This document shows, in pieces, positions 33,968 to 43,856 of a stretch of 64,000 nucleotides of DNA. Source of the stretch: an uncultured virus (IMG/VR IMGVR_UViG_3300018475_001895) (Duplodnaviria; Heunggongvirae; Uroviricota; Caudoviricetes). A program made the translations under genes and the position numbers. A model generated the notes under the pieces. It was not told where the DNA came from. It saw nothing but the letters and a program-made list of their open reading frames with translations, and did not search any database. How positions within the stretch are numbered: position 1 is the first letter of the stretch; the number at the start of each line of letters is the position of its first letter. Location: the IMG/VR virus record IMGVR_UViG_3300018475_001895; one strand, 5' to 3'.

Positions 33968-35212
33968 ATGGCGGAAAGGATTCTCAACGAGGCTCAGCAG
34001 AAAGAGCTGTTCCGCCTCATCGGTGATCCTGAAAAGTTGGATGCTCATATCATTGCAAATTTATTTGCTTATATGAAAGATGGCGGTATTAAGTATCATC
34101 CTGATGATATTATTACCATTGGACCAAATGAGTCGAAGTTTGTAAAACCCAATACGAAGACTACAATCGGTATCTATCTAGCAAATAAGTATATCTGGGA
34201 AGATCTGGCCATCTTCGGGTATATCAATAAACCCGTTACTGGCAAGGTAAATGGCAAGATTGATACCGCAATGGCAAAAGCTTTGATGTCTGGTGATATT
34301 ACACGGGAGCAATATGGTCGTTATATTGATCGTACACAGTGGTTATATGGTGGTCCTCTTGCTTTTATTATCAATACTTCCTTATCGGAAACTTTGATCA
34401 CTCTTCCTCCGGCTGCTAAAGCTCAGAAGAAGAAGCTCCTTGAAGAAAATCGAGAAGGCATTGAAGCGAATGATCCTCAGGTGTCTACTCATATTGAACA
34501 TGAAGTTGTTAAGACTGCATTGGATGAAATGAGGAAAAAGAATGACCCTGCTATGGCATTGTTTGATGCCGGTTGCGGTATTGATCCATATAACCAATAT
34601 AAGACAATTATGGTTATGAAGGGTGCTGTTCAGGATAATACAGGCGAATCTCCTACGGGATATAAGGTCATTACATCTAACTATGATACCGGTATCACTA
34701 AAGAAGATATGCCGAAAATCGCTGATACAGTTGTTACGTCATCCTATTCTTCTGGCGTTGCTACACAGGACTCCGGTACAAACGGAAAGAAATATAACGC
34801 TTTGTTTCAGCGAGTTCGACTTCAAAAGCGCGGTTCTGATTGTAGCACAACCGAGACGATTGCCGTTGATATCACAAAGGATAATGCAGACGACTATACC
34901 TGGCGGTATATCGTCGAAGGTAGTTCTAACGGTAGTAAGGGCAAACTTGTGATGCTTACTCCAGAAAATATTGACTCCTACATCGGCAAGACAGTAAAGA
35001 TGCGCACCGGTATCTACTGTAAGGCGAAAGACCCTGAGTATTGTTCTTGCTGTATTGGCGACAGACCATATCGTATCGGTGTGCGTAATATTGGGTTTAC
35101 GTTTATGACTATTTCAGGCTCTACCTTAAATGCTTCCTTGAAGCGTAAACATGACGTAAGCGTGAAGTTATATCCGATACAGATATCCGATGTGATGAAA
35201 TATGTGATGTAA
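33968..35212 (+). CDS. Phage RNA polymerase beta' C-terminal subunit
   Basis: Bridge-helix-like SSYSSGVATQDSGTNGKKY...SDCST; Zn site MRTGIYC...CSCCIG; trigger-loop-like TLNASLKRKH. Confidence 0.85.
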   Translation: MAERILNEAQQKELFRLIGDPEKLDAHIIANLFAYMKDGGIKYHPDDIITIGPNESKFVKPNTKTTIGIYLANKYIWEDLAIFGYINKPVTGKVNGKIDTAMAKALMSGDITREQYGRYIDRTQWLYGGPLAFIINTSLSETLITLPPAAKAQKKKLLEENREGIEANDPQVSTHIEHEVVKTALDEMRKKNDPAMALFDAGCGIDPYNQYKTIMVMKGAVQDNTGESPTGYKVITSNYDTGITKEDMPKIADTVVTSSYSSGVATQDSGTNGKKYNALFQRVRLQKRGSDCSTTETIAVDITKDNADDYTWRYIVEGSSNGSKGKLVMLTPENIDSYIGKTVKMRTGIYCKAKDPEYCSCCIGDRPYRIGVRNIGFTFMTISGSTLNASLKRKHDVSVKLYPIQISDVMKYVM

Positions 35213-36394: not shown

Positions 36395-37114
36395 ATGGTT
36401 TTGACTGATATGAAGTCGATTACAGTCATTAAACGTGATGGTCGTGAGGTTGAATTCAATTACGATCGTATTACGAAAGCTATCAAGTCAGCAATGATTG
36501 CTGTGAATCCGCAGGGTTATATTAATGGTATTCCAGTTGAGCTTGCTGCTGCGAATGTCAAAGACGATGTTGTTTACGATATCGAGAAGTCCTTGCGATC
36601 TGATGCAGATAAAAAGATCACTGTAGAAGCAATCCAGGATCTCGTTGAAGAAGCTCTTATTCGTTTAGGCTATTCTGATATTGCCAGAGCGTACATCATC
36701 TATAGACAGAATCGTAATCGTGCACGCAATTATAAATCTGATATGATGAATATTATGCGTGAGATTACATATTCTGATGCTGTTGATGCTGATATTAAAC
36801 GCGAGAATGGTAATATCAATGCTGACTCTCCTATGGGAGCTATGCTCAAGTATGGTTCTGAAGTATCCAAACAGTTTGCGCATCAGGATCTTCTTACACC
36901 CGAACATAGCAAGGCTCATATGGAGGGAGACTGTCAAATACATGATTTGGATTTCCTTGCTACTGGTACATTGACTTGTAATCAGATTGATATTATCGAA
37001 CTTTTTAAGGATGGGTTTTCTACAGGGCACGGATATCTTAGAGAACCTGGTTCGATTCGATCTTATGCAGCTCTTGCATGTATTGCGATTCAGGCAGAGC
37101 AGAATGATATGCAT
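36395..37114 (+). CDS. nrdD: Anaerobic ribonucleoside-triphosphate reductase, exon 1 (ATP cone)
   Basis: VIKRDGREVEFNYDRI ATP cone, ENGNIN, IHDLDF, ...QNDMH; continues in frame as GGQS after the intron. Confidence 0.93.
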
Positions 37115-38187
37115 TTCGGTGTGTAAATTTACATTATTTCATTTTGATTAATGTAATATTTATATAATGTGGTGCCGCCATATAGGAAACTTATGGTGGA
37201 AACTCCGTAAACCTGTGATCCGCAGGGTGTGAAGATAACGAATAGTTACATCAGGAAATGGGTGTTTAATATCTTTGCTAACCGGGAACTGCAAGTGTGA
37301 CGACTTGTTAATCCGGTGCCACGTTCAAATTTATTTATACCATCACATTCATATTCTATAGGAAAGGAGGGTGCATTATGAGCAAAGTTCAGGTTAATAC
37401 ATTATGGTCATTGGAAAACATAAAAGACCAATACATATTTGATACTGAAACTCTTGATATTACAAATATATGGAGTGGCAGAATTATTTCTGTGTATATA
37501 GATAAACGTGGATATCCTGCTGTATCTATGAGTTTGAAAAATCCAACAAAAACTGGCAGAAGATATGCTAATGTAAAATATCATAAAATTATTGCATTAG
37601 CATGTATAAACAATGGTCCATATAAGCTCATTGAACATCTTGATGATAATCCATTAAACTTTCATCCGAGCAATCTTAAGTTTTCAACTCAAACCGAAAA
37701 TGCAAAAACTATGCGTGCAAATGGAATCAATAATCATATTGATTCAATCTTTGAGTTGATGCTAACAGATGGAACGAAGTATATTGGAACAACAAAAGAG
37801 ATTTCAGAGCAAAGCGGTATTCGCAGAGGCGCCATATATGATAAGATGTATCAGCGATATGATAAATCTCATACAAGGACTCAGCGAAAATATAATATAC
37901 AACACGTTAAACTTCTCTATTCTGGGAATGAGCGGAGGAACGCTACAAAGAAAGAAAAGGTGCTACGGGAAAGGGATAGTGATGGGTTCCTTATCCTACA
38001 TAGAATTAATAATTTGAACAGGTTCAGAGACTAACGAAAGGATAGCCGGCGCATAAGGTTTGAGTCTTATCAACTCTTAACGGCGAGTAACCGAGTAGTG
38101 TTAGCTCCGAGATGGATACGGGAGCGAAAATGGAGGGCCCTAACTAGGTGAAGCTAGAGGGCTGAGATATAGTCCGTTGGCCCGACG
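37115..38187 (+). mobile_element. Group I intron in nrdD (1073 nt) carrying an HNH homing endonuclease
   Basis: P1: exon AUGCAU, UUCG loop, GUGUGU with U.G at the splice site; R CAGAGACTA 38025-38033; S AGATATAGTC 38165-38174; terminal G 38187; splicing restores NDMH|GGQSIPNFEYG. Confidence 0.92.
37378..38034 (+). CDS. Intron-encoded HNH homing endonuclease
   Basis: HKIIA...IEHLDDNPLNFHPSNLKFSTQTEN; GAAAGGAGG SD; stop overlaps intron P7. Confidence 0.88.
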   Translation: MSKVQVNTLWSLENIKDQYIFDTETLDITNIWSGRIISVYIDKRGYPAVSMSLKNPTKTGRRYANVKYHKIIALACINNGPYKLIEHLDDNPLNFHPSNLKFSTQTENAKTMRANGINNHIDSIFELMLTDGTKYIGTTKEISEQSGIRRGAIYDKMYQRYDKSHTRTQRKYNIQHVKLLYSGNERRNATKKEKVLRERDSDGFLILHRINNLNRFRD

Positions 38188-39882
38188 GGTGGGCAATCTA
38201 TACCAAACTTTGAATACGGTCTTGCAATCGGTGTGCATAAAAGTTTTCGCAAGGCTATTATTCAGAAAATTCTTGATTATCTCAATATCATTGCAGGCAT
38301 TGAGTATCAGTCTTTGAAGACTGAAATTAAAGCCAGTGTTGATCACTACATTGCTAATGGTGTCAAGCTGAATGAGTATGTTGCGGAAGAAAACATGTCC
38401 AAGGATCCTTCTAGGATTATAGCAATCTCTGATATTATTCGCAATTATACCAATACGGATATTAGTTTTGATACGGCTAGCAATATTCTTAAAAGTGCAA
38501 TTCGGACTGTTGTTGATGAAACACATCAGGCCACTGAAGCTGTTATCCATAATCTTAACAGTATGCATTCTCGTGCTGGCGCACAGGTACCATTTTCTTC
38601 TTTGAACTATGGCACGGATACCACAGATGCTGGTAGACTTGTTATTAGAGAAACTTTGAATGCTGTAAATGAAGGTCTCGGTAACGGTGAAACGGCAATC
38701 TTCCCCATCTCTATTTTCCGAGTAAAAGATGGAATCAATTTTAAACCCGGGGATCCTAATTACGATCTCTATAGATATTCTATGGAGGTTACTGCTAAGA
38801 GACTATTCCCGAATTATGAGTTTCTTGATGCACCGTTCAATCTGCAGTATTATGTAGAAGGTAAACCTGAAACATACGTTGCTACGATGGGATGTAGGAC
38901 TCGTGTTATGGGCAATATCAACGGTCCTGAGATCTCTCATGGTCGTGGTAATCTGTCTTTTACAACCATCAACCTTCCCCGTCTTGCGATCAAGGCTGAA
39001 AAGAATATTGATAAATTCTTTGATGAGCTTGCTCATATGCTTCAGCTCGTCGAAGAACAGTTATATTTAAGATATAAATACCAGAGTACAAAGAAAGTTC
39101 TTAATTTCCCATTCCTTATGGGTGAGAGTCTTTGGTTGGATTCTGATAAACTTGAATACAATGATAGCGTGAAGGAAGTTCTCAAGCATGGCACATTAAG
39201 TATTGGGTTTATCGGCCTCGCCGAGGCTCTGGTAGCTTTGATTGGTAAGCATCATGGTGAGTCCAAAGAAGCTCAAGAACTCGGTCTTAAGATCATTGGG
39301 TTTATGCGCAAGTGGTGTGATGATGCAAGTCAGAGACATTACTTAAACTACAGTCTTCTGCAAACCCCGGCCGAAGGGCTTTCTGGAAGATTTACTCGTC
39401 TTGATAGAAAACGCTATGGCATTATTCCCGGTGTAACTGATAGAGAATACTATACTAATTCGAGTCATGTACCCGTTTACTATGAGATTAATGCTTTTGA
39501 TAAGATTGCTATCGAAGCGCCATATCATGCTCTGTGTAATGCAGGACATATTGCATATATCGAGATGGATGGAGATCCCAGTAAGAATGTCGATGCAATC
39601 GAGCAGATTCTTGCCCATATGAAGAATTGTGGTATCGGATATGGATCTATCAACCATCCTGTCGACTATGATCCTGTCTGTGGTTACACTGGTATCATTG
39701 ATGATGTATGCCCTCGCTGTGGTAGACGCGAAGGTGAACCTGTGGCAGTAGATAAGCTTCGTCATCTGGGTGTGTGGAAGCATCATGCAGCGGATCCGAT
39801 TGCATATCGTCCGGATCCCAACGAGGAAGCTGATAAAATTCCAAATATTTTCGTATACACACCGAAGAAGGAGAATGAATGA
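38188..39882 (+). CDS. nrdD: Anaerobic ribonucleoside-triphosphate reductase, exon 2 (lacks the glycyl-radical motif)
   Basis: LNSMHSRAGAQVPFSS, IFPI, TMGCRT, GRGNLSFTTINLPR, TPAEGL, YYTNS, CGY...CPRCG; no R(V/I)TGY at the C-terminus; spliced product ~804 aa. Confidence 0.93.
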   Translation, partial: GGQSIPNFEYGLAIGVHKSFRKAIIQKILDYLNIIAGIEYQSLKTEIKASVDHYIANGVKLNEYVAEENMSKDPSRIIAISDIIRNYTNTDISFDTASNILKSAIRTVVDETHQATEAVIHNLNSMHSRAGAQVPFSSLNYGTDTTDAGRLVIRETLNAVNEGLGNGETAIFPISIFRVKDGINFKPGDPNYDLYRYSMEVTAKRLFPNYEFLDAPFNLQYYVEGKPETYVATMGCRTRVMGNINGPEISHGRGNLSFTTINLPRLAIKAEKNIDKFFDELAHMLQLVEEQLYLRYKYQSTKKVLNFPFLMGESLWLDSDKLEYNDSVKEVLKHGTLSIGFIGLAEALVALIGKHHGESKEAQELGLKIIGFMRKWCDDASQRHYLNYSLLQTPAEGLSGRFTRLDRKRYGIIPGVTDREYYTNSSHVPVYYEINAFDKIAIEAPYHALCNAGHIAYIEMDGDPSKNVDAIEQILAHMKNCGIGYGSINHPVDYDPVCGYTGIIDDVCPRCGRREGEPVAVDKLRHLGVWKHHAADPIAYRPDPNEEADKIPNIFVYTPKKENE

Positions 39883-40397
39883 GTAAGATCAGAGTAGCGG
39901 GTGTGATTGAGAATTCTACTGTTGACGGCCCCGGATTCCGCACAGTAATTTTTACTCAAGGATGTCCGCATCATTGTGAAGGGTGTCATAATCCGGAAAC
40001 CTGGTCTTGTGATGGTGGGACTTTAATTGAAGTGAAAGATCTTGCTGATCTTATCATGAAAAATCCATATTGTACTGCAATCACATTATCTGGTGGCGAA
40101 CCAATGAGTCAAGCTGCTGAATTGTGTGAATTGTTGGATGTGTTTGAAAGTGCTGGTAAGAGCTATCATGTGATGACTTTTACTGGATATACATTTGAAC
40201 ACCTGTGGGATAGTGGTTCCAACCACATGAAAGAACTAATTTCTCGATCTGATCTAGTGGTCGATGGGCCATTCATTATGACTGAGAAATCGTTGGAATT
40301 GTACTACCGAGGTTCGCGGAATCAACGAATTTTGGAAGGAAAGTCCTCGATCATGTTAGGTCGGCCGGTGCTTGCAAAGATCGGAGATCAGATCTAG
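39879..40397 (+). CDS. nrdG: Anaerobic RNR activating protein (radical SAM)
   Basis: VDGPGFR, QGCPHHCEGCHN (CxxxCxxC), SGGEP, VDGPF, RGSRNQR. Confidence 0.96.
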   Translation: MSKIRVAGVIENSTVDGPGFRTVIFTQGCPHHCEGCHNPETWSCDGGTLIEVKDLADLIMKNPYCTAITLSGGEPMSQAAELCELLDVFESAGKSYHVMTFTGYTFEHLWDSGSNHMKELISRSDLVVDGPFIMTEKSLELYYRGSRNQRILEGKSSIMLGRPVLAKIGDQI

Positions 40398-40437: not shown

Positions 40438-40515
40438 ATGAAGACTTTTGTAAGAAATGGTATTGAAATGGTTGGCGAAGGAGTTCGCTTTGATCGTATC
40501 AGGCGTGTTACCGGT
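40438..40515 (+). CDS. Stand-alone NrdD glycyl-radical peptide, exon 1
   Basis: AAGGAG SD; MKTFVRNGIEMVGEGVRFDRIRRVTG, then intron. Confidence 0.88.
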
Positions 40516-41501
40516 TGACCTACCAAATAGGCCGGTGCCCATGGTGACATGGGGCAATAAAATCCATTAAACTGTCGGGGACGATCCTTAGAGCTCTGAA
40601 TACTAAGTATATGCAGTGATGTATATATGGCAAAGTGTAACGGCTTTGGTATAGTAACAACGTCAGAGATTGGACAATCCGCAGCGAAACCTCTGTTTAT
40701 TTCAGAGGGACGTTCAACGATTATAATATGGAGAGTTTAGCTATGAGTAAAAAACCAGAAATAAAACCTACTGATAATGAAATTGAATATGTTACAGAAT
40801 GGTATGGTATAAAGAAGGCTGCAGAAATTGCGGATGATCTTGAAATCTCTGTGAATCGTGTATATAATATTTGCAGATTTATAGGATTTAAACATTTAAA
40901 TCGCAATTTCCTAATAATGTATGATCAGGAGCAAATTATCCTCGGTGGAATTCTCGGTGATGGTAATATTAAACGCAATGGTAGTAATTATTACTATCGA
41001 GAATCTCATTCCGAAAAAGAGAAAGAATACTGCTACTGGAAATTTAAGATGCTAGAAAACTTGGCGTCTAAACGAGGGTTCGGTATTTCCGATAAACGTG
41101 ATGGACAATATGGTTTTCAAACAATAAACTCACCAGCATTTAAGAAATATAAGAAAATGTCTAAAAGTGAGGTTATTGATAACTTAGATATACTAGGGGC
41201 TTTGGTATATTTTCTCGATGATGGATGGATGAAATCTACCGGGTTTTGTTTGTCTACAGGCATACTCGATGAAAATGAGCGTGAATTATTAAAGGCCAAA
41301 CTTGATAAACTATTTAGAATCGATTGTCACCTTATTGGCAATGAGACTTTATCAGTAACAAAGAAAGATATTATTAAGTTAATTAAAGCGTTTAAGAAGT
41401 ATATCCCTCATAACATTGATGTATACAGGAAGAAAGTGCAGCCGCTCATAGATAAATTTAAGGTATAATCTAATCCTCCCAGAAATGGAAGGCAGCCAAT
41501 G
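40516..41501 (+). mobile_element. Group I intron (986 nt) carrying a LAGLIDADG endonuclease, inserted right after the radical Gly codon
   Basis: P1 ACCGGU/GCCGGU; Q AATCCGCAGC 40676-40685; R CAACGATTA 40715-40723; S AGGTATAATC 41461-41470; terminal G 41501; splicing restores RVTG|YLVG. Confidence 0.92.
40728..41468 (+). CDS. Intron-encoded LAGLIDADG homing endonuclease
   Basis: IILGGILGDGNI and ALVYFLDDGW motifs, N-terminal HTH-like segment. Confidence 0.88.
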   Translation: MESLAMSKKPEIKPTDNEIEYVTEWYGIKKAAEIADDLEISVNRVYNICRFIGFKHLNRNFLIMYDQEQIILGGILGDGNIKRNGSNYYYRESHSEKEKEYCYWKFKMLENLASKRGFGISDKRDGQYGFQTINSPAFKKYKKMSKSEVIDNLDILGALVYFLDDGWMKSTGFCLSTGILDENERELLKAKLDKLFRIDCHLIGNETLSVTKKDIIKLIKAFKKYIPHNIDVYRKKVQPLIDKFKV

Positions 41502-41615
41502 TATCTGGTAGGCACATTGGATCGTTTTAATGATGCGAAGCGTGCTGAAGAACATGATCGCGTGAAGCATTCTGTTGGCATGCCGCTTAAGTTACAGGTA
41601 GGTGAAAGTGCGTGA
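41502..41615 (+). CDS. Stand-alone NrdD glycyl-radical peptide, exon 2
   Basis: YLVGTLDRFNDAKRAEEHDRVKHSVGMPLKLQVGESA*; spliced total 63 aa. Confidence 0.88.
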   Translation, partial: YLVGTLDRFNDAKRAEEHDRVKHSVGMPLKLQVGESA

Positions 41616-42115
41616 ATGGTGCCGCTATTGAGGAACGTATCTGGGTCGTTCACAATGGCGCTACAACCACTACTACGCTAAGAGATCTTTATGCAGCTTA
41701 TGTTGCCGGTCGACTGGGGGAATACCGCATTTATTATGTGGACCCTCAGTCGATCGAAGACTCTCGAAAAGATGATATGAAGAAACCTCTTGTTGGTACA
41801 ATGAGTATTCTTGAAGTAATCAATAATGGGATTCATCAGAAAGTGGTTGTTACGTCGGAGGATGATCTCACTGTTACAATGGGAGCAACTGGGACGTTGC
41901 TCGATTATGCTGACTGGGAGCCTACGCATCTTACTGTGAATTTTGCTCCGAATACGAAACATTTCGTTTCAGCACTGAGTGGAATTGGTGGGGCTCCTGG
42001 GGATAAGATCTTTATTCGCAAGATTAAGTCTTATCGAATGACAGGATCTTGTAATGTCGTTACATTACCAACACCCAATATGATTTCAGTGAACGGCTTT
42101 GTGGTTATGTGTTAA
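41612..42115 (+). CDS. Stand-alone degenerate Hint (intein-like) domain protein
   Basis: Pattern resembles intein blocks A/N2 (ERIWVVHNG..TLRDLY), B (EVINNG...VVVTSEDDLTVT) and F/G (NVVTL...ISVNGFVVMC); catalytic Cys1, TxxH and HN absent. Confidence 0.5.
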   Translation: MNGAAIEERIWVVHNGATTTTTLRDLYAAYVAGRLGEYRIYYVDPQSIEDSRKDDMKKPLVGTMSILEVINNGIHQKVVVTSEDDLTVTMGATGTLLDYADWEPTHLTVNFAPNTKHFVSALSGIGGAPGDKIFIRKIKSYRMTGSCNVVTLPTPNMISVNGFVVMC

Positions 42116-42149
42116 TTATTAATTGATTAATACTATAACTAATTTATAA

Positions 42150-43000
42150 GCTCGAAGTTGCTAGCGGGCTATTGAGGTACGATTCGGTTGGGCTGCCCTG
42201 GCGGGGTGATATGTGGAATCATCCTGCCCTCGTGCGTGCATGTGGCGGCCCGTTGTGCCTTGCCATTTTAGGCGTCCGGTGATAGCGGGGAATTCACTCG
42301 GCGCTAATTCCAGCTCAGTACAGTCGTAGTGTCAACGCTGTATGGTCAGATTAGCGACACGCCGATAATAAGGTCTGGCTTTAGGCGGCTAATCATTGAA
42401 TGTATACCAGAACCGAGCGCAGGATATAAAATAAGAAATCCGGTAACAATGCTACAGGACAAGTAGTATGCGCCGATAGGACTCTATGAGCGAGAGTCCT
42501 AGTTACTGGTCTATTTGAGGATTGAGAGTCGAGAACTACATTGAGGCGAAACTGGGATCTTTTATTAATCCTGCTTAACTGTGGTATTTGGGCCAACGAA
42601 TACGCGCTGGCAAGTCCTCGGTAAATTACGTCGGGATATATCAGATCTGACGGATGCGGTGTGGTAATGGCAGAGCTATTGTTCTAGGCCGTTATGTAAA
42701 TGTGTCTCGACTCTCTTTCCTCGGTAGTATTTTTATTTCATCAATATCCATCTTAATATATCCAGGGTGATAGTTTCGTATCGTAGGTTCACAGCCTAAC
42801 CCTGGCACATACGTATGCAATCCTTTGGATATTGGGCAGCAGACATTGTGAACATGACCTCCAATCTATGTAATCGTGGATATCGTTGTCGACCAAGTTT
42901 CAACGGTCGATCAGGACAACAAAGGCACTTCCTTGAGTATGGTATGTTTGCTTGTGAGGCAGGGAGCTGTAGAGGGTGGTGTGTCCTCTACAGCTCATTT
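42150..43000 (+). ncRNA. Large (~850 nt) highly structured non-coding RNA candidate
   Basis: No credible ORF; at least 10 nested helices, with G-U pairs on the plus strand; upstream TAATACTATAA motif; downstream terminator. Confidence 0.75.
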
Positions 43001-43006
43001 TATTTT
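42964..43006 (+). terminator. Intrinsic terminator of the ncRNA candidate
   Basis: GAGCTGTAGAGGG/TCCTCTACAGCTC stem followed by ATTTTATTTT. Confidence 0.8.
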
Positions 43007-43036
43007 ATCAATTATCACAGAAAGGTGTGAATTTAT

Positions 43037-43837
43037 ATGATGAAATTATGGGAAAAGATCCTAAACTTCTTTCATTTATATACACAAAGCCAGATGAAGC
43101 AAAAGCTGGCCGATAATACAGCTTACTATGACGCTGAAATTGTAGCTCTTCGAACTTCTGCTGAACAAACGGTAGAAGGGTTGAAGGGAATTATTTCCGC
43201 GCATGAAACTCTTCAGTTAAGATATGATGAGGTTGCTGAAGTCGTTACAAAACAGAACGATATGATTGCAAGTCTCAATAAAGTAAAAGAGAATCTTGAT
43301 AAACAGCTCACGATTGCTAATCAGAGACTTCGTGATATGGAGCGCGTTGATGCTGCGCGAGTAGAAGAAGTTGCTAGATATAAGGAAGCGGCAATGAAGA
43401 ACATAGAATACGTAAAAGATGTTCAGAAACAGCTTTCTGAGGTACTTCACGACAGTAATGCATTCGGATTTCCGAATAAAGTGGCTATACCCGGATCAAC
43501 ATCCATCAGAACTGATATCAGTGAAGATTCCGCAAATGGTGATATGATCATTGTTCGCGGAAGAACTCTTCTGACTGACGATATGACACCAAAAATTAAT
43601 GATACACCTGATATGTATGGTCGATTAGAATTGATCTTTGGTTATATGGAGAGATATGGAGTTCTGTCCAATATTGCTAAGAATCTGATCCGTTCTGGTA
43701 CGATTGCTTTTACTCTTGCATACAATGATCATTGCACTGCATATGAGACATATTATGAGTGTGTAGCAAAACGACAGGACGAGACATCTCTTGTCGTAAT
43801 CAATGATATGAAGAAATTAGATGTGGAGGGGCAATGA
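43037..43837 (+). CDS. Coiled-coil hypothetical protein
   Basis: 266 aa; GAAAGGTG SD; heptad-rich N-terminal half. Confidence 0.75.
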   Translation: MMKLWEKILNFFHLYTQSQMKQKLADNTAYYDAEIVALRTSAEQTVEGLKGIISAHETLQLRYDEVAEVVTKQNDMIASLNKVKENLDKQLTIANQRLRDMERVDAARVEEVARYKEAAMKNIEYVKDVQKQLSEVLHDSNAFGFPNKVAIPGSTSIRTDISEDSANGDMIIVRGRTLLTDDMTPKINDTPDMYGRLELIFGYMERYGVLSNIAKNLIRSGTIAFTLAYNDHCTAYETYYECVAKRQDETSLVVINDMKKLDVEGQ

Positions 43838-43856
43838 CCCCTCCACATCTTTTATT
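43819..43856. terminator. Terminator between convergent genes
   Basis: AGATGTGGAGGGG/CCCCTCCACATCT stem followed by TTTATT. Confidence 0.75.

Follow-up and report, generated by a model that had tools for sequence, protein, structure and literature searches.

Large orphan RNAs recur in big phages, with GOLLD, ROOL and the ICP1 RNA as examples, and to our knowledge none of them has a known job. Phage morons, described in the lambdoid-phage literature, are promoter-cargo-terminator cassettes inserted between conserved genes. In the Vibrio phage ICP1, an RNA of ~800 nt from a gap of ~1 kb without open reading frames (ORFs) was the most abundant transcript by RNA-seq (PMC7567579). This RNA lies between gp139 and gp140, not beside tRNAs, and is of unknown function (PMC7567579). 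GOLLD and ROOL are reported to form multimeric cages (bioRxiv 10.1101/2024.12.08.627333). The present analysis concerns a 921-nt gap (42116-43036), between the stop of ORF167 (42115) and the start of ORF266 (43037), in a 64,000-nt stretch of an uncultured Caudoviricetes virus, a gut jumbo phage (IMG/VR record IMGVR_UViG_3300018475_001895). This stretch, called the window, corresponds to positions 53270-117269 of a 230,855-bp record with an estimated completeness of 89%. We read the gap, with about an even chance of being right, as a moron-like cassette for a long, structured non-coding transcript that ends at a terminator and belongs to no known ornate RNA class. The ~800-nt orphan RNA of ICP1 appears to be the nearest experimental analogue that it resembles, as both involve an ORF-less gap of ~1 kb in a lytic phage, a length of ~0.8 kb and a position not adjacent to tRNA genes (PMC7567579). 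They differ in that the ICP1 RNA was seen by RNA-seq, whereas the RNA of the gap is a prediction from sequence.

The gap is non-coding, as an earlier note on this DNA had held for the interval 42115-43037; four genetic codes, protein-family searches and the indels of natural variants all agreed with that claim. Under table 11, no ORF in the gap was longer than 71 aa, and re-reading with TAG as Gln, TGA as Trp or TAA as Gln gave no long ORF except read-through into ORF266. The longest ATG ORF (71 aa, 42815-43030) passes through the terminator described below. Within the gap, every ORF of more than 40 aa lacks a start codon preceded by a credible Shine-Dalgarno box; strong AAGGAGG ribosome-binding sites are used elsewhere in the phage. 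When the eight longest stop-to-stop frames were searched, neither PHROG (0/8) nor Pfam (0/8) gave a match at E ≤ 1. Variant-strain contigs from two gut metagenome runs carry an extra T after 42190 and an extra C after 42248, and one of them additionally has a 1-nt deletion at 42266 and an AC insertion after 42918, the latter falling inside the longest ATG ORF. These indels would frameshift every sizeable ORF in the gap, which argues that the stretch does not code for protein. The runs containing the stretch are faecal or gut metagenomes, going by the run records. The GC content of the gap is 0.45-0.51, compared with 0.414 for the genome. A search of the phage's own genome for paralogues or antisense targets found no second copy (best match, a 16-mer with E 0.04), and neither iterons nor tandem repeats were present in the gap.

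The boundaries of the candidate transcript are marked by the following features:

42145-43005, + strand: candidate non-coding transcript of ~860 nt, with a predicted 5′ end and the terminator as its 3′ end

42128-42151, + strand: promoter-like AT-rich boxes, TAATACTATAAC then TTTATAAGC

42731-42745, + strand: TTTTATTTCATCAAT, the first copy of a U-rich tail motif, directly after the long-range helix

42964-43012, + strand: intrinsic terminator, a 13-15-bp stem followed by a T-run with the second tail-motif copy (found by the terminator scan; pair probability 0.98)

At the 5′ side, TAATACTATAA sits at 42128, and AATACTATA (42129-42137, within TAATACTATAAC) is one mismatch away from the phage's recurrent TATA[CT]TATA box. 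This box has 29 sites in the genome, 25 of them on the + strand, and 7 sites have an exact TTTCCGATTTG 14-15 nt upstream. The resulting promoter-like consensus, TTTCCGATTTG-N14-15-TATA[CT]TATA, recurs genome-wide (e.g. window 50229, 80905 and 103170). The second box, TTTATAAGC at 42143, fits T[GT]TATAA[AG]C, for which 15 genome sites were found, a few directly before a ribosome-binding site. From these motifs, a promoter at the 5′ end of the gap is plausible; no terminator precedes the gap, so read-through from ORF167 is equally possible. The phage codes for a multisubunit RNA-polymerase beta-like protein and for virion proteins, and part of its genome is probably transcribed by its own polymerase, which bears on the question of which sequences qualify as promoters. 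The homologue of the phage multisubunit RNA polymerase beta subunit lies at 33968-35212 (PHROG 2962, E 4e-60).

At the 3′ side, the scan defined the terminator as a 15-bp stem (42964-42996) plus ATTTTATTTT, and the ribosome-binding site of ORF266 follows ~25 nt past it. An upstream motif and an own terminator had both been predicted before, and both are present, the former as a promoter-like box. The 15-nt tail motif, TTTTATTT[CT]ATCAAT, occurs only twice in the genome (230 kb), after the terminator and after the 3′ arm (42705-42723) of the long-range helix. As each copy follows a helix, the unit may have two termination points. Another terminator, perfect, bidirectional and with a stem of 13-14 bp, was observed at 43819-43850, where ORF266 and the structural genes of the minus strand converge (local z -6 to -7.8).

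The gap has more long stems than expected by chance. Between 42145 and 43010, 5 perfect Watson-Crick stems of at least 9 bp were counted, compared with 0.92 ± 0.9 expected from 100 dinucleotide shuffles, none of which (0/100) reached 5. Stems of at least 11 bp numbered 2, compared with 0.06 in the shuffles (0/100 reached 2). Six coding control segments of the same length had 1, 0, 1, 1, 4 and 1 stems of at least 9 bp. The minimum free energy (MFE) of the whole region gave z-scores of -3.0 on the + strand and -2.58 on the - strand (20 shuffles). For 200-nt windows within the gap, z ranged from -3.3 to +0.2; coding windows went down to -7.8. The partition function yielded 28 helices with pair probabilities of at least 0.59, and the principal ones are as follows:

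42200-42228, + strand: 11-bp hairpin (pair probability 0.99), present in the earlier note

42249-42289, + strand: 8-bp helix around a small hairpin at 42261-42274 (pair probabilities 0.79 and 0.89)

42302-42356, + strand: 8-bp helix with an inner 6-bp hairpin (0.79 and 0.88)

42440-42509, + strand: three-way junction of 8 + 7 + 9 bp (0.87, 0.98 and 0.98; RNAalifold structure, model R1)

42516-42723, + strand: long-range helix of 6 + 11 bp closing a branched domain of ~170 nt (0.94 and 0.98)

42762-42805, + strand: Y-shaped domain, a 7-bp stem plus two small hairpins (0.89-0.94)

42864-42911, + strand: two 7-bp hairpins (0.97 and 0.94)

The long-range helix (42516-34/42705-23) is an 18-nt inverted repeat with 89% complementarity (repeat pair I1). 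All seven helix pairs for which the earlier note had given coordinates, and its seven further motifs, were located exactly at those positions, and the pairs are fully complementary once G-U is allowed. In the base-pair-probability model, seven of its 10 pairings returned (p 0.79-0.99); 42163/42247, 42742/42826 and 42255/42922 were absent, and with the last of these goes the proposal of a long-range pair closing the core. It had also taken the mismatches readable as G-U on the plus strand for a sign of selection at the RNA level. The + strand is rich in G and U, and its folding advantage over the - strand survives shuffling (-269 vs -214 kcal/mol, about 55 kcal/mol), so the G-U argument reduces to an effect of composition. 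The five listed variant positions are in loops or linkers or are able to extend a helix: G42290 is a possible partner for the C inserted after 42248, and the deletion at 42266 would lie in a hairpin loop. This is a post-hoc reading of five events. The strongest + strand local fold in the 7 kb scanned (z -7.75) was at 41601-41800, in the 5′ part of ORF167 and outside the gap.

A similar non-coding slot is present in distant relatives. The gap DNA was compared with distant relatives only (L012, L013, L014 and L015), in which ORF167 is 57-68% identical; closer homologues were seen as proteins, with identities of 84-96% for ORF167 and 67-92% for ORF266. In all three relatives with a complete locus, the interval between ORF167 and ORF266 is an ORF-poor non-coding gap, of 513 nt in L012, 840 nt in L013 and about 640 nt in L015, with a GC content of 0.47-0.51. 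These gaps open with an AT-rich TATAA-like box and close with a GC-rich hairpin, which the ribosome-binding site follows after about 30-45 nt. L012 and L013 share a 15-nt box (ATATATGTATAAAC plus one flanking base) at the same place; the rest of their gaps are unrelated. Their z-scores, in the order L012, L013 and L015, were -4.2, -2.55 and -6.4 on the + strand and -3.0, -2.0 and -2.4 on the - strand, the - strand value of L013 being from the shorter span 2187-2923. Long stems were enriched in L012 (2 of at least 10 bp vs 0.11) and L015 (3 of at least 9 bp vs 0.30), and in L013 only at 11 bp or more; none of the four coding controls from the relatives had a stem of at least 10 bp. A GGACTCT k-mer found in 4 of the 5 gaps (expected 0.2) was rejected as chance, its positions being non-collinear.

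Searches elsewhere returned few relatives. Neither the gap by blastn in distant mode nor ORF167 and ORF266 by tblastn gave a match among 50,697 GenBank phage records. IMG/VR scans with ORF266, an ORF167 alignment, a back-translated ORF167 motif and the long-range-helix arms found only five identical contigs and one distant relative. Three distant relatives came from a metagenome scan, and none from a scan of one genome per GTDB species. In all 5 IMG/VR contigs that carry it, the gap is 100% identical. In the variant strain, a contig covering 41855-43115 has 11 substitutions and 2 indels. The gap there is diverged by about 0.7-0.9%, compared with ~4.7% for ORF266 (65 differences in 1,377 nt), and ORF167 has no difference at all over 41653-41914 (262 nt). 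The whole block 41653-43115, comprising ORF167 and the gap, is 99-100% identical in this strain, with flanks at 83% (LAGLIDADG ORF) and ~95% (ORF266). Judged by these identities, recombination has made the region a mosaic, with breakpoints close to the intron and to where ORF266 starts.

No known RNA family accounts for the gap. Covariance-model searches of the whole window against Rfam brought no family to its gathering score; when 41900-43300 was searched at E ≤ 10, the sole match was a spurious BTnc201 on the terminator hairpin. The same search finds the neighbouring group I intron, which indicates that the method works here. The GOLLD, ROOL and OLE models gave no match to the gap, E ≤ 10 included. 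Intron_gpI found nothing in the gap at E ≤ 10, although it detects the neighbouring intron, and for a group II intron there was neither an Rfam match in the gap nor a reverse-transcriptase ORF. ORF167 and ORF266 are both full length in comparison with their homologues; the gap thus lies between two complete genes and not inside one. ARAGORN and Rfam found no tRNA, tmRNA or RNase P RNA in the gap, and ARAGORN placed the single tRNA of the genome at genome 48061-48147, ~47 kb away. Riboswitch, T-box and other cis-regulatory families had no match in the gap, and a full-text literature search of limited coverage found no description of the gap RNA. The absence of tRNA, tmRNA, RNase P and intron signatures that the earlier note had reported therefore holds. 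Its assignment to the GOLLD/ROOL/OLE class, or to a demonstrable new class, does not: there is no Rfam match and no alignable homologue other than copies 99-100% identical, the excess of folding energy is no more than usual in this phage, and the relatives share only the architecture.

In the reading that we favour, the cassette would start at the AT-rich promoter-like box just past the ORF167 stop and end at the strong terminator ~30 nt before ORF266. The ~860 nt of GC-enriched sequence between them would fold into many local hairpins and a few longer-range helices, and the gap would be the gene for a long, structured, lineage-specific phage RNA. Transcription might start at a promoter of the cassette itself or enter by read-through of the upstream operon, and the product might accumulate as a discrete RNA. 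Because the sequence turns over completely between relatives, such an RNA would act through bulk structure or abundance and not through a conserved catalytic or binding core. Possible roles are those of a decoy or sponge for a host factor, or of a transcriptional insulator between modules. A compact genome, with only 15 ORF-free gaps of at least 250 nt in 230 kb, has kept a GC-richer, stem-rich, terminator-ended slot where ORF266 is down to 29-35% identity, which argues for function over junk. That no sequence at all is conserved speaks against an ornate RNA built on a conserved core.

Several observations weigh against a structured RNA gene. The 5′ box is a partial match and lacks the upstream element TTTCCGATTTG of the phage, and the box of L012 and L013 occurs just once in the 105-kb record of L012. 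Four 881-nt coding controls from the same window had z-scores of -2.44, -2.72, -0.67 and -2.42, so that the -3.0 of the gap is hardly better. Windows within 42601-42900 score z about 0, and only 48% of the gap positions are well defined in the ensemble. Stem count and MFE z-score disagree, so that structure beyond chance is partly supported, and coding stretches of this phage have a comparable excess of folding energy. The low divergence of the gap in the variant strain is common to ORF167 and so reflects a mosaic block rather than selection on the gap. No similarity between the gap and the gaps of the relatives was found by nhmmer with all filters off (--max) or by blastn with 7-nt words. MAFFT alignment of the 5′ and 3′ ends gave no conserved block except the 5′ AT-rich box of L012 and L013, and a covariance model of the three-way junction found nothing in the relatives. 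The only homologues that align to the gap are copies 99-100% identical, which offer no covariation. L012 and L013 are 75% identical in ORF167 and yet unalignable in their gaps, a turnover faster than that of known functional structured RNAs.

Two other explanations compete seriously with this reading. The gap may be a functionless remnant, either mobile DNA that has decayed or a dead moron at a hot spot of recombination, passively transcribed, with hairpins as a by-product of GC-richer foreign sequence. The neighbourhood is indeed rich in selfish elements (a group I intron and genes of the HNH and LAGLIDADG types), gap length and sequence are entirely different among relatives, coding sequence has a similar MFE z-score, and terminal inverted repeats of 11 nt, matching at 10/11 (pair I4), flank the gap. 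However, no protein remnant was detected in any frame, and the homing-endonuclease region is AT-rich (GC 0.32-0.35 across 40700-41450), in contrast to the GC-rich gap. Reading the inverted repeat as a MITE was rejected, as the second genome copy that a MITE would have is missing. Lineages in which ORF266 has fallen to 29-35% identity still have a gap with the same boundaries, and non-coding gaps are scarce in the genome. An enrichment of long stems was observed for the gap of the window and for those of two of the three relatives (in L013 only at 11 bp or more). We regard a remnant as rather unlikely. A cis-acting leader or attenuator would make the gap the structured 5′ leader of ORF266 or the 3′ untranslated region of the upstream operon, with the terminator gating transcription into ORF266 and no function in trans. 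About 30 nt separate the terminator from the ribosome-binding site and ATG of ORF266, with no room for a separate promoter, since the sole hexamer matches in between overlap the start codon; the order hairpin, ribosome-binding site, ATG is repeated in L012, L013 and L015; and a second helix and U-tract with the same tail motif at 42705-42745 is reminiscent of tandem attenuators. Known attenuators and antitermination leaders, however, are tens to a few hundred nt long, which leaves 500-900 nt with a full set of independent hairpins unexplained, and no riboswitch, T-box or other cis-regulatory family matched the gap. A leader is in our estimate unlikely.

A DNA-level element, such as an R-loop-primed replication origin or a packaging or recombination site, might be suspected where a promoter-like box leads into G-rich (+ strand GC skew 0.13-0.16), hairpin-rich DNA. 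The flanking genes on the + strand, however, have the same skew as the gap, the cumulative skew over the whole genome does not turn near genome position 95-96 kb, iterons and tandem repeats are absent from the gap, and the site is 0.8 kb from a convergent transcription end point, so that such an element seems very improbable. Hidden small-protein genes seem equally improbable. Several ORFs of 30-70 codons are present in the gap, and L015 has an 86-codon ATG ORF with AAGGA upstream; against this, the window's gap has no Shine-Dalgarno-headed ORF of more than 40 aa, its longest ATG ORF crosses the terminator and is broken by the 2-nt insertion of a natural variant, three 1-nt indels strike the 5′ ORFs, and the translations are Cys-rich, of low complexity and without family matches. 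A more far-reaching version of the non-coding transcript is conceivable, though we hold it to be distinctly unlikely. A clade of gut jumbo phages would keep a fixed promoter-like-box/terminator slot beside a domesticated Hint-fold protein, always filled with a structured non-coding RNA of 0.5-0.9 kb whose sequence is replaced or diverged. An arms race, and not a conserved fold, would have shaped such a hypervariable non-coding moron, whose RNA might for instance be a decoy directed at a nuclease or another host defence.

The genes on either side of the gap are:

41612-42115, + strand: ORF167, upstream neighbour, conserved in the phage clade (17 homologues, 56-96% identity)

43037-43837, + strand: ORF266, downstream neighbour (4 homologues at 33-92% identity)

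ORF167 had no Pfam match. Its AF2 model is of low confidence (pLDDT 59, pTM 0.60). Compared with the PDB, the model gave 16 matches at E ≤ 0.001, all of them inteins, and its BFVD matches were mostly intein-bearing viral proteins. ORF167 thus models, at low confidence, as a free-standing Hint/intein-like fold without exteins. By our reading of the alignment the usual catalytic residues are not evident, and the protein may be a domesticated intein. ORF266 is predicted to consist of a long coiled coil and a C-terminal alpha/beta domain (AF2 model, pLDDT 75.6); its tblastn matches in L012, L013 and L015 are only 29-35% identical.

The region upstream contains nrdD, which is fragmented, and nrdG. 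The earlier note had placed the RNA downstream of the ribonucleotide reductase (RNR) locus; the location is correct, and the link is incidental, since the relatives have the ORF167-gap-ORF266 module without nrdD/nrdG beside it. The nrdD gene is in pieces, with an ATP-cone and NRDD 1-103 at 36395-37126 and NRDD 113-531 at 38233-39882, the latter having the Zn ribbon and lacking the glycyl-radical end. An HNH endonuclease ORF (37378-38034) lies between the pieces, and nrdG is at 39879-40397. After nrdG, a 64-codon gene (40438-41615) codes for the detached glycyl-radical C-terminus of NrdD. Exon 1 (40438-40515) ends with ...RIRRVTG; exon 2 (41502-41615) begins with YLVGTLDRF... and matches NRDD 542-562 at E 0.05. 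This tail gene is interrupted by a group I intron of 986 nt (40516-41501), which contains an ORF for a LAGLIDADG homing endonuclease (40728-41468). Rfam Intron_gpI matches both intron ends (E 0.04-0.05), and in intron-less metagenome homologues the similarity breaks exactly at 41502, preceded there by sequence coding for ...RITG.

The remaining ORF-free gaps of at least 250 nt in the genome have GC contents of 0.31-0.49. Among the GC-richer ones, the tRNA island has 0.45 and the 5′ portion of the window's intron that lacks ORFs has 0.42. A second 914-nt ORF-free gap (GC 0.45) was observed at genome 48028-48941, outside the window (L016 about 1529-2442); it contains a tRNA-Leu(CAG) on the minus strand and a further tRNA-like T-arm sequence, and it has no similarity to the gap studied here. 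A further group I intron candidate, with a tRNA-like match within it, was found at genome 28192-28580 (L017 693-1081; Intron_gpI 45 bits against a gathering score of 50, E 5.6e-9).

If the gap gives a discrete transcript, it would be a case of conserved position and architecture without conserved sequence, and such a case would point to a function dependent on structure or abundance, or to rapid host-driven turnover, and not to a conserved ribozyme-like core. Should it prove to be no more than a leader or a remnant, helix-rich, GC-richer gaps with modest z-scores would be insufficient for calling an ornate RNA. Coding sequence of this phage folds almost as well as the gap.

Compared with known systems, the gap is like GOLLD and ROOL in being about 0.6-0.9 kb, phage- or prophage-borne and furnished with many helices. 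It differs from them in two respects: GOLLD and ROOL have conserved cores recognisable across distant hosts, whereas the gap is without an alignable relative, and they are often beside tRNA genes, whereas the gap is ~47 kb from the only tRNA of the genome. Group I introns of phage nucleotide-metabolism genes are structured RNAs of similar size, and a real one is situated 600 nt upstream of the gap. The traits shared with morons are the position between conserved genes, an own promoter-like box and terminator, an atypical GC content and a cargo that varies among relatives. Classical morons carry a protein gene; the cargo of the gap is non-coding in the window and in all three of the relatives with a complete locus.

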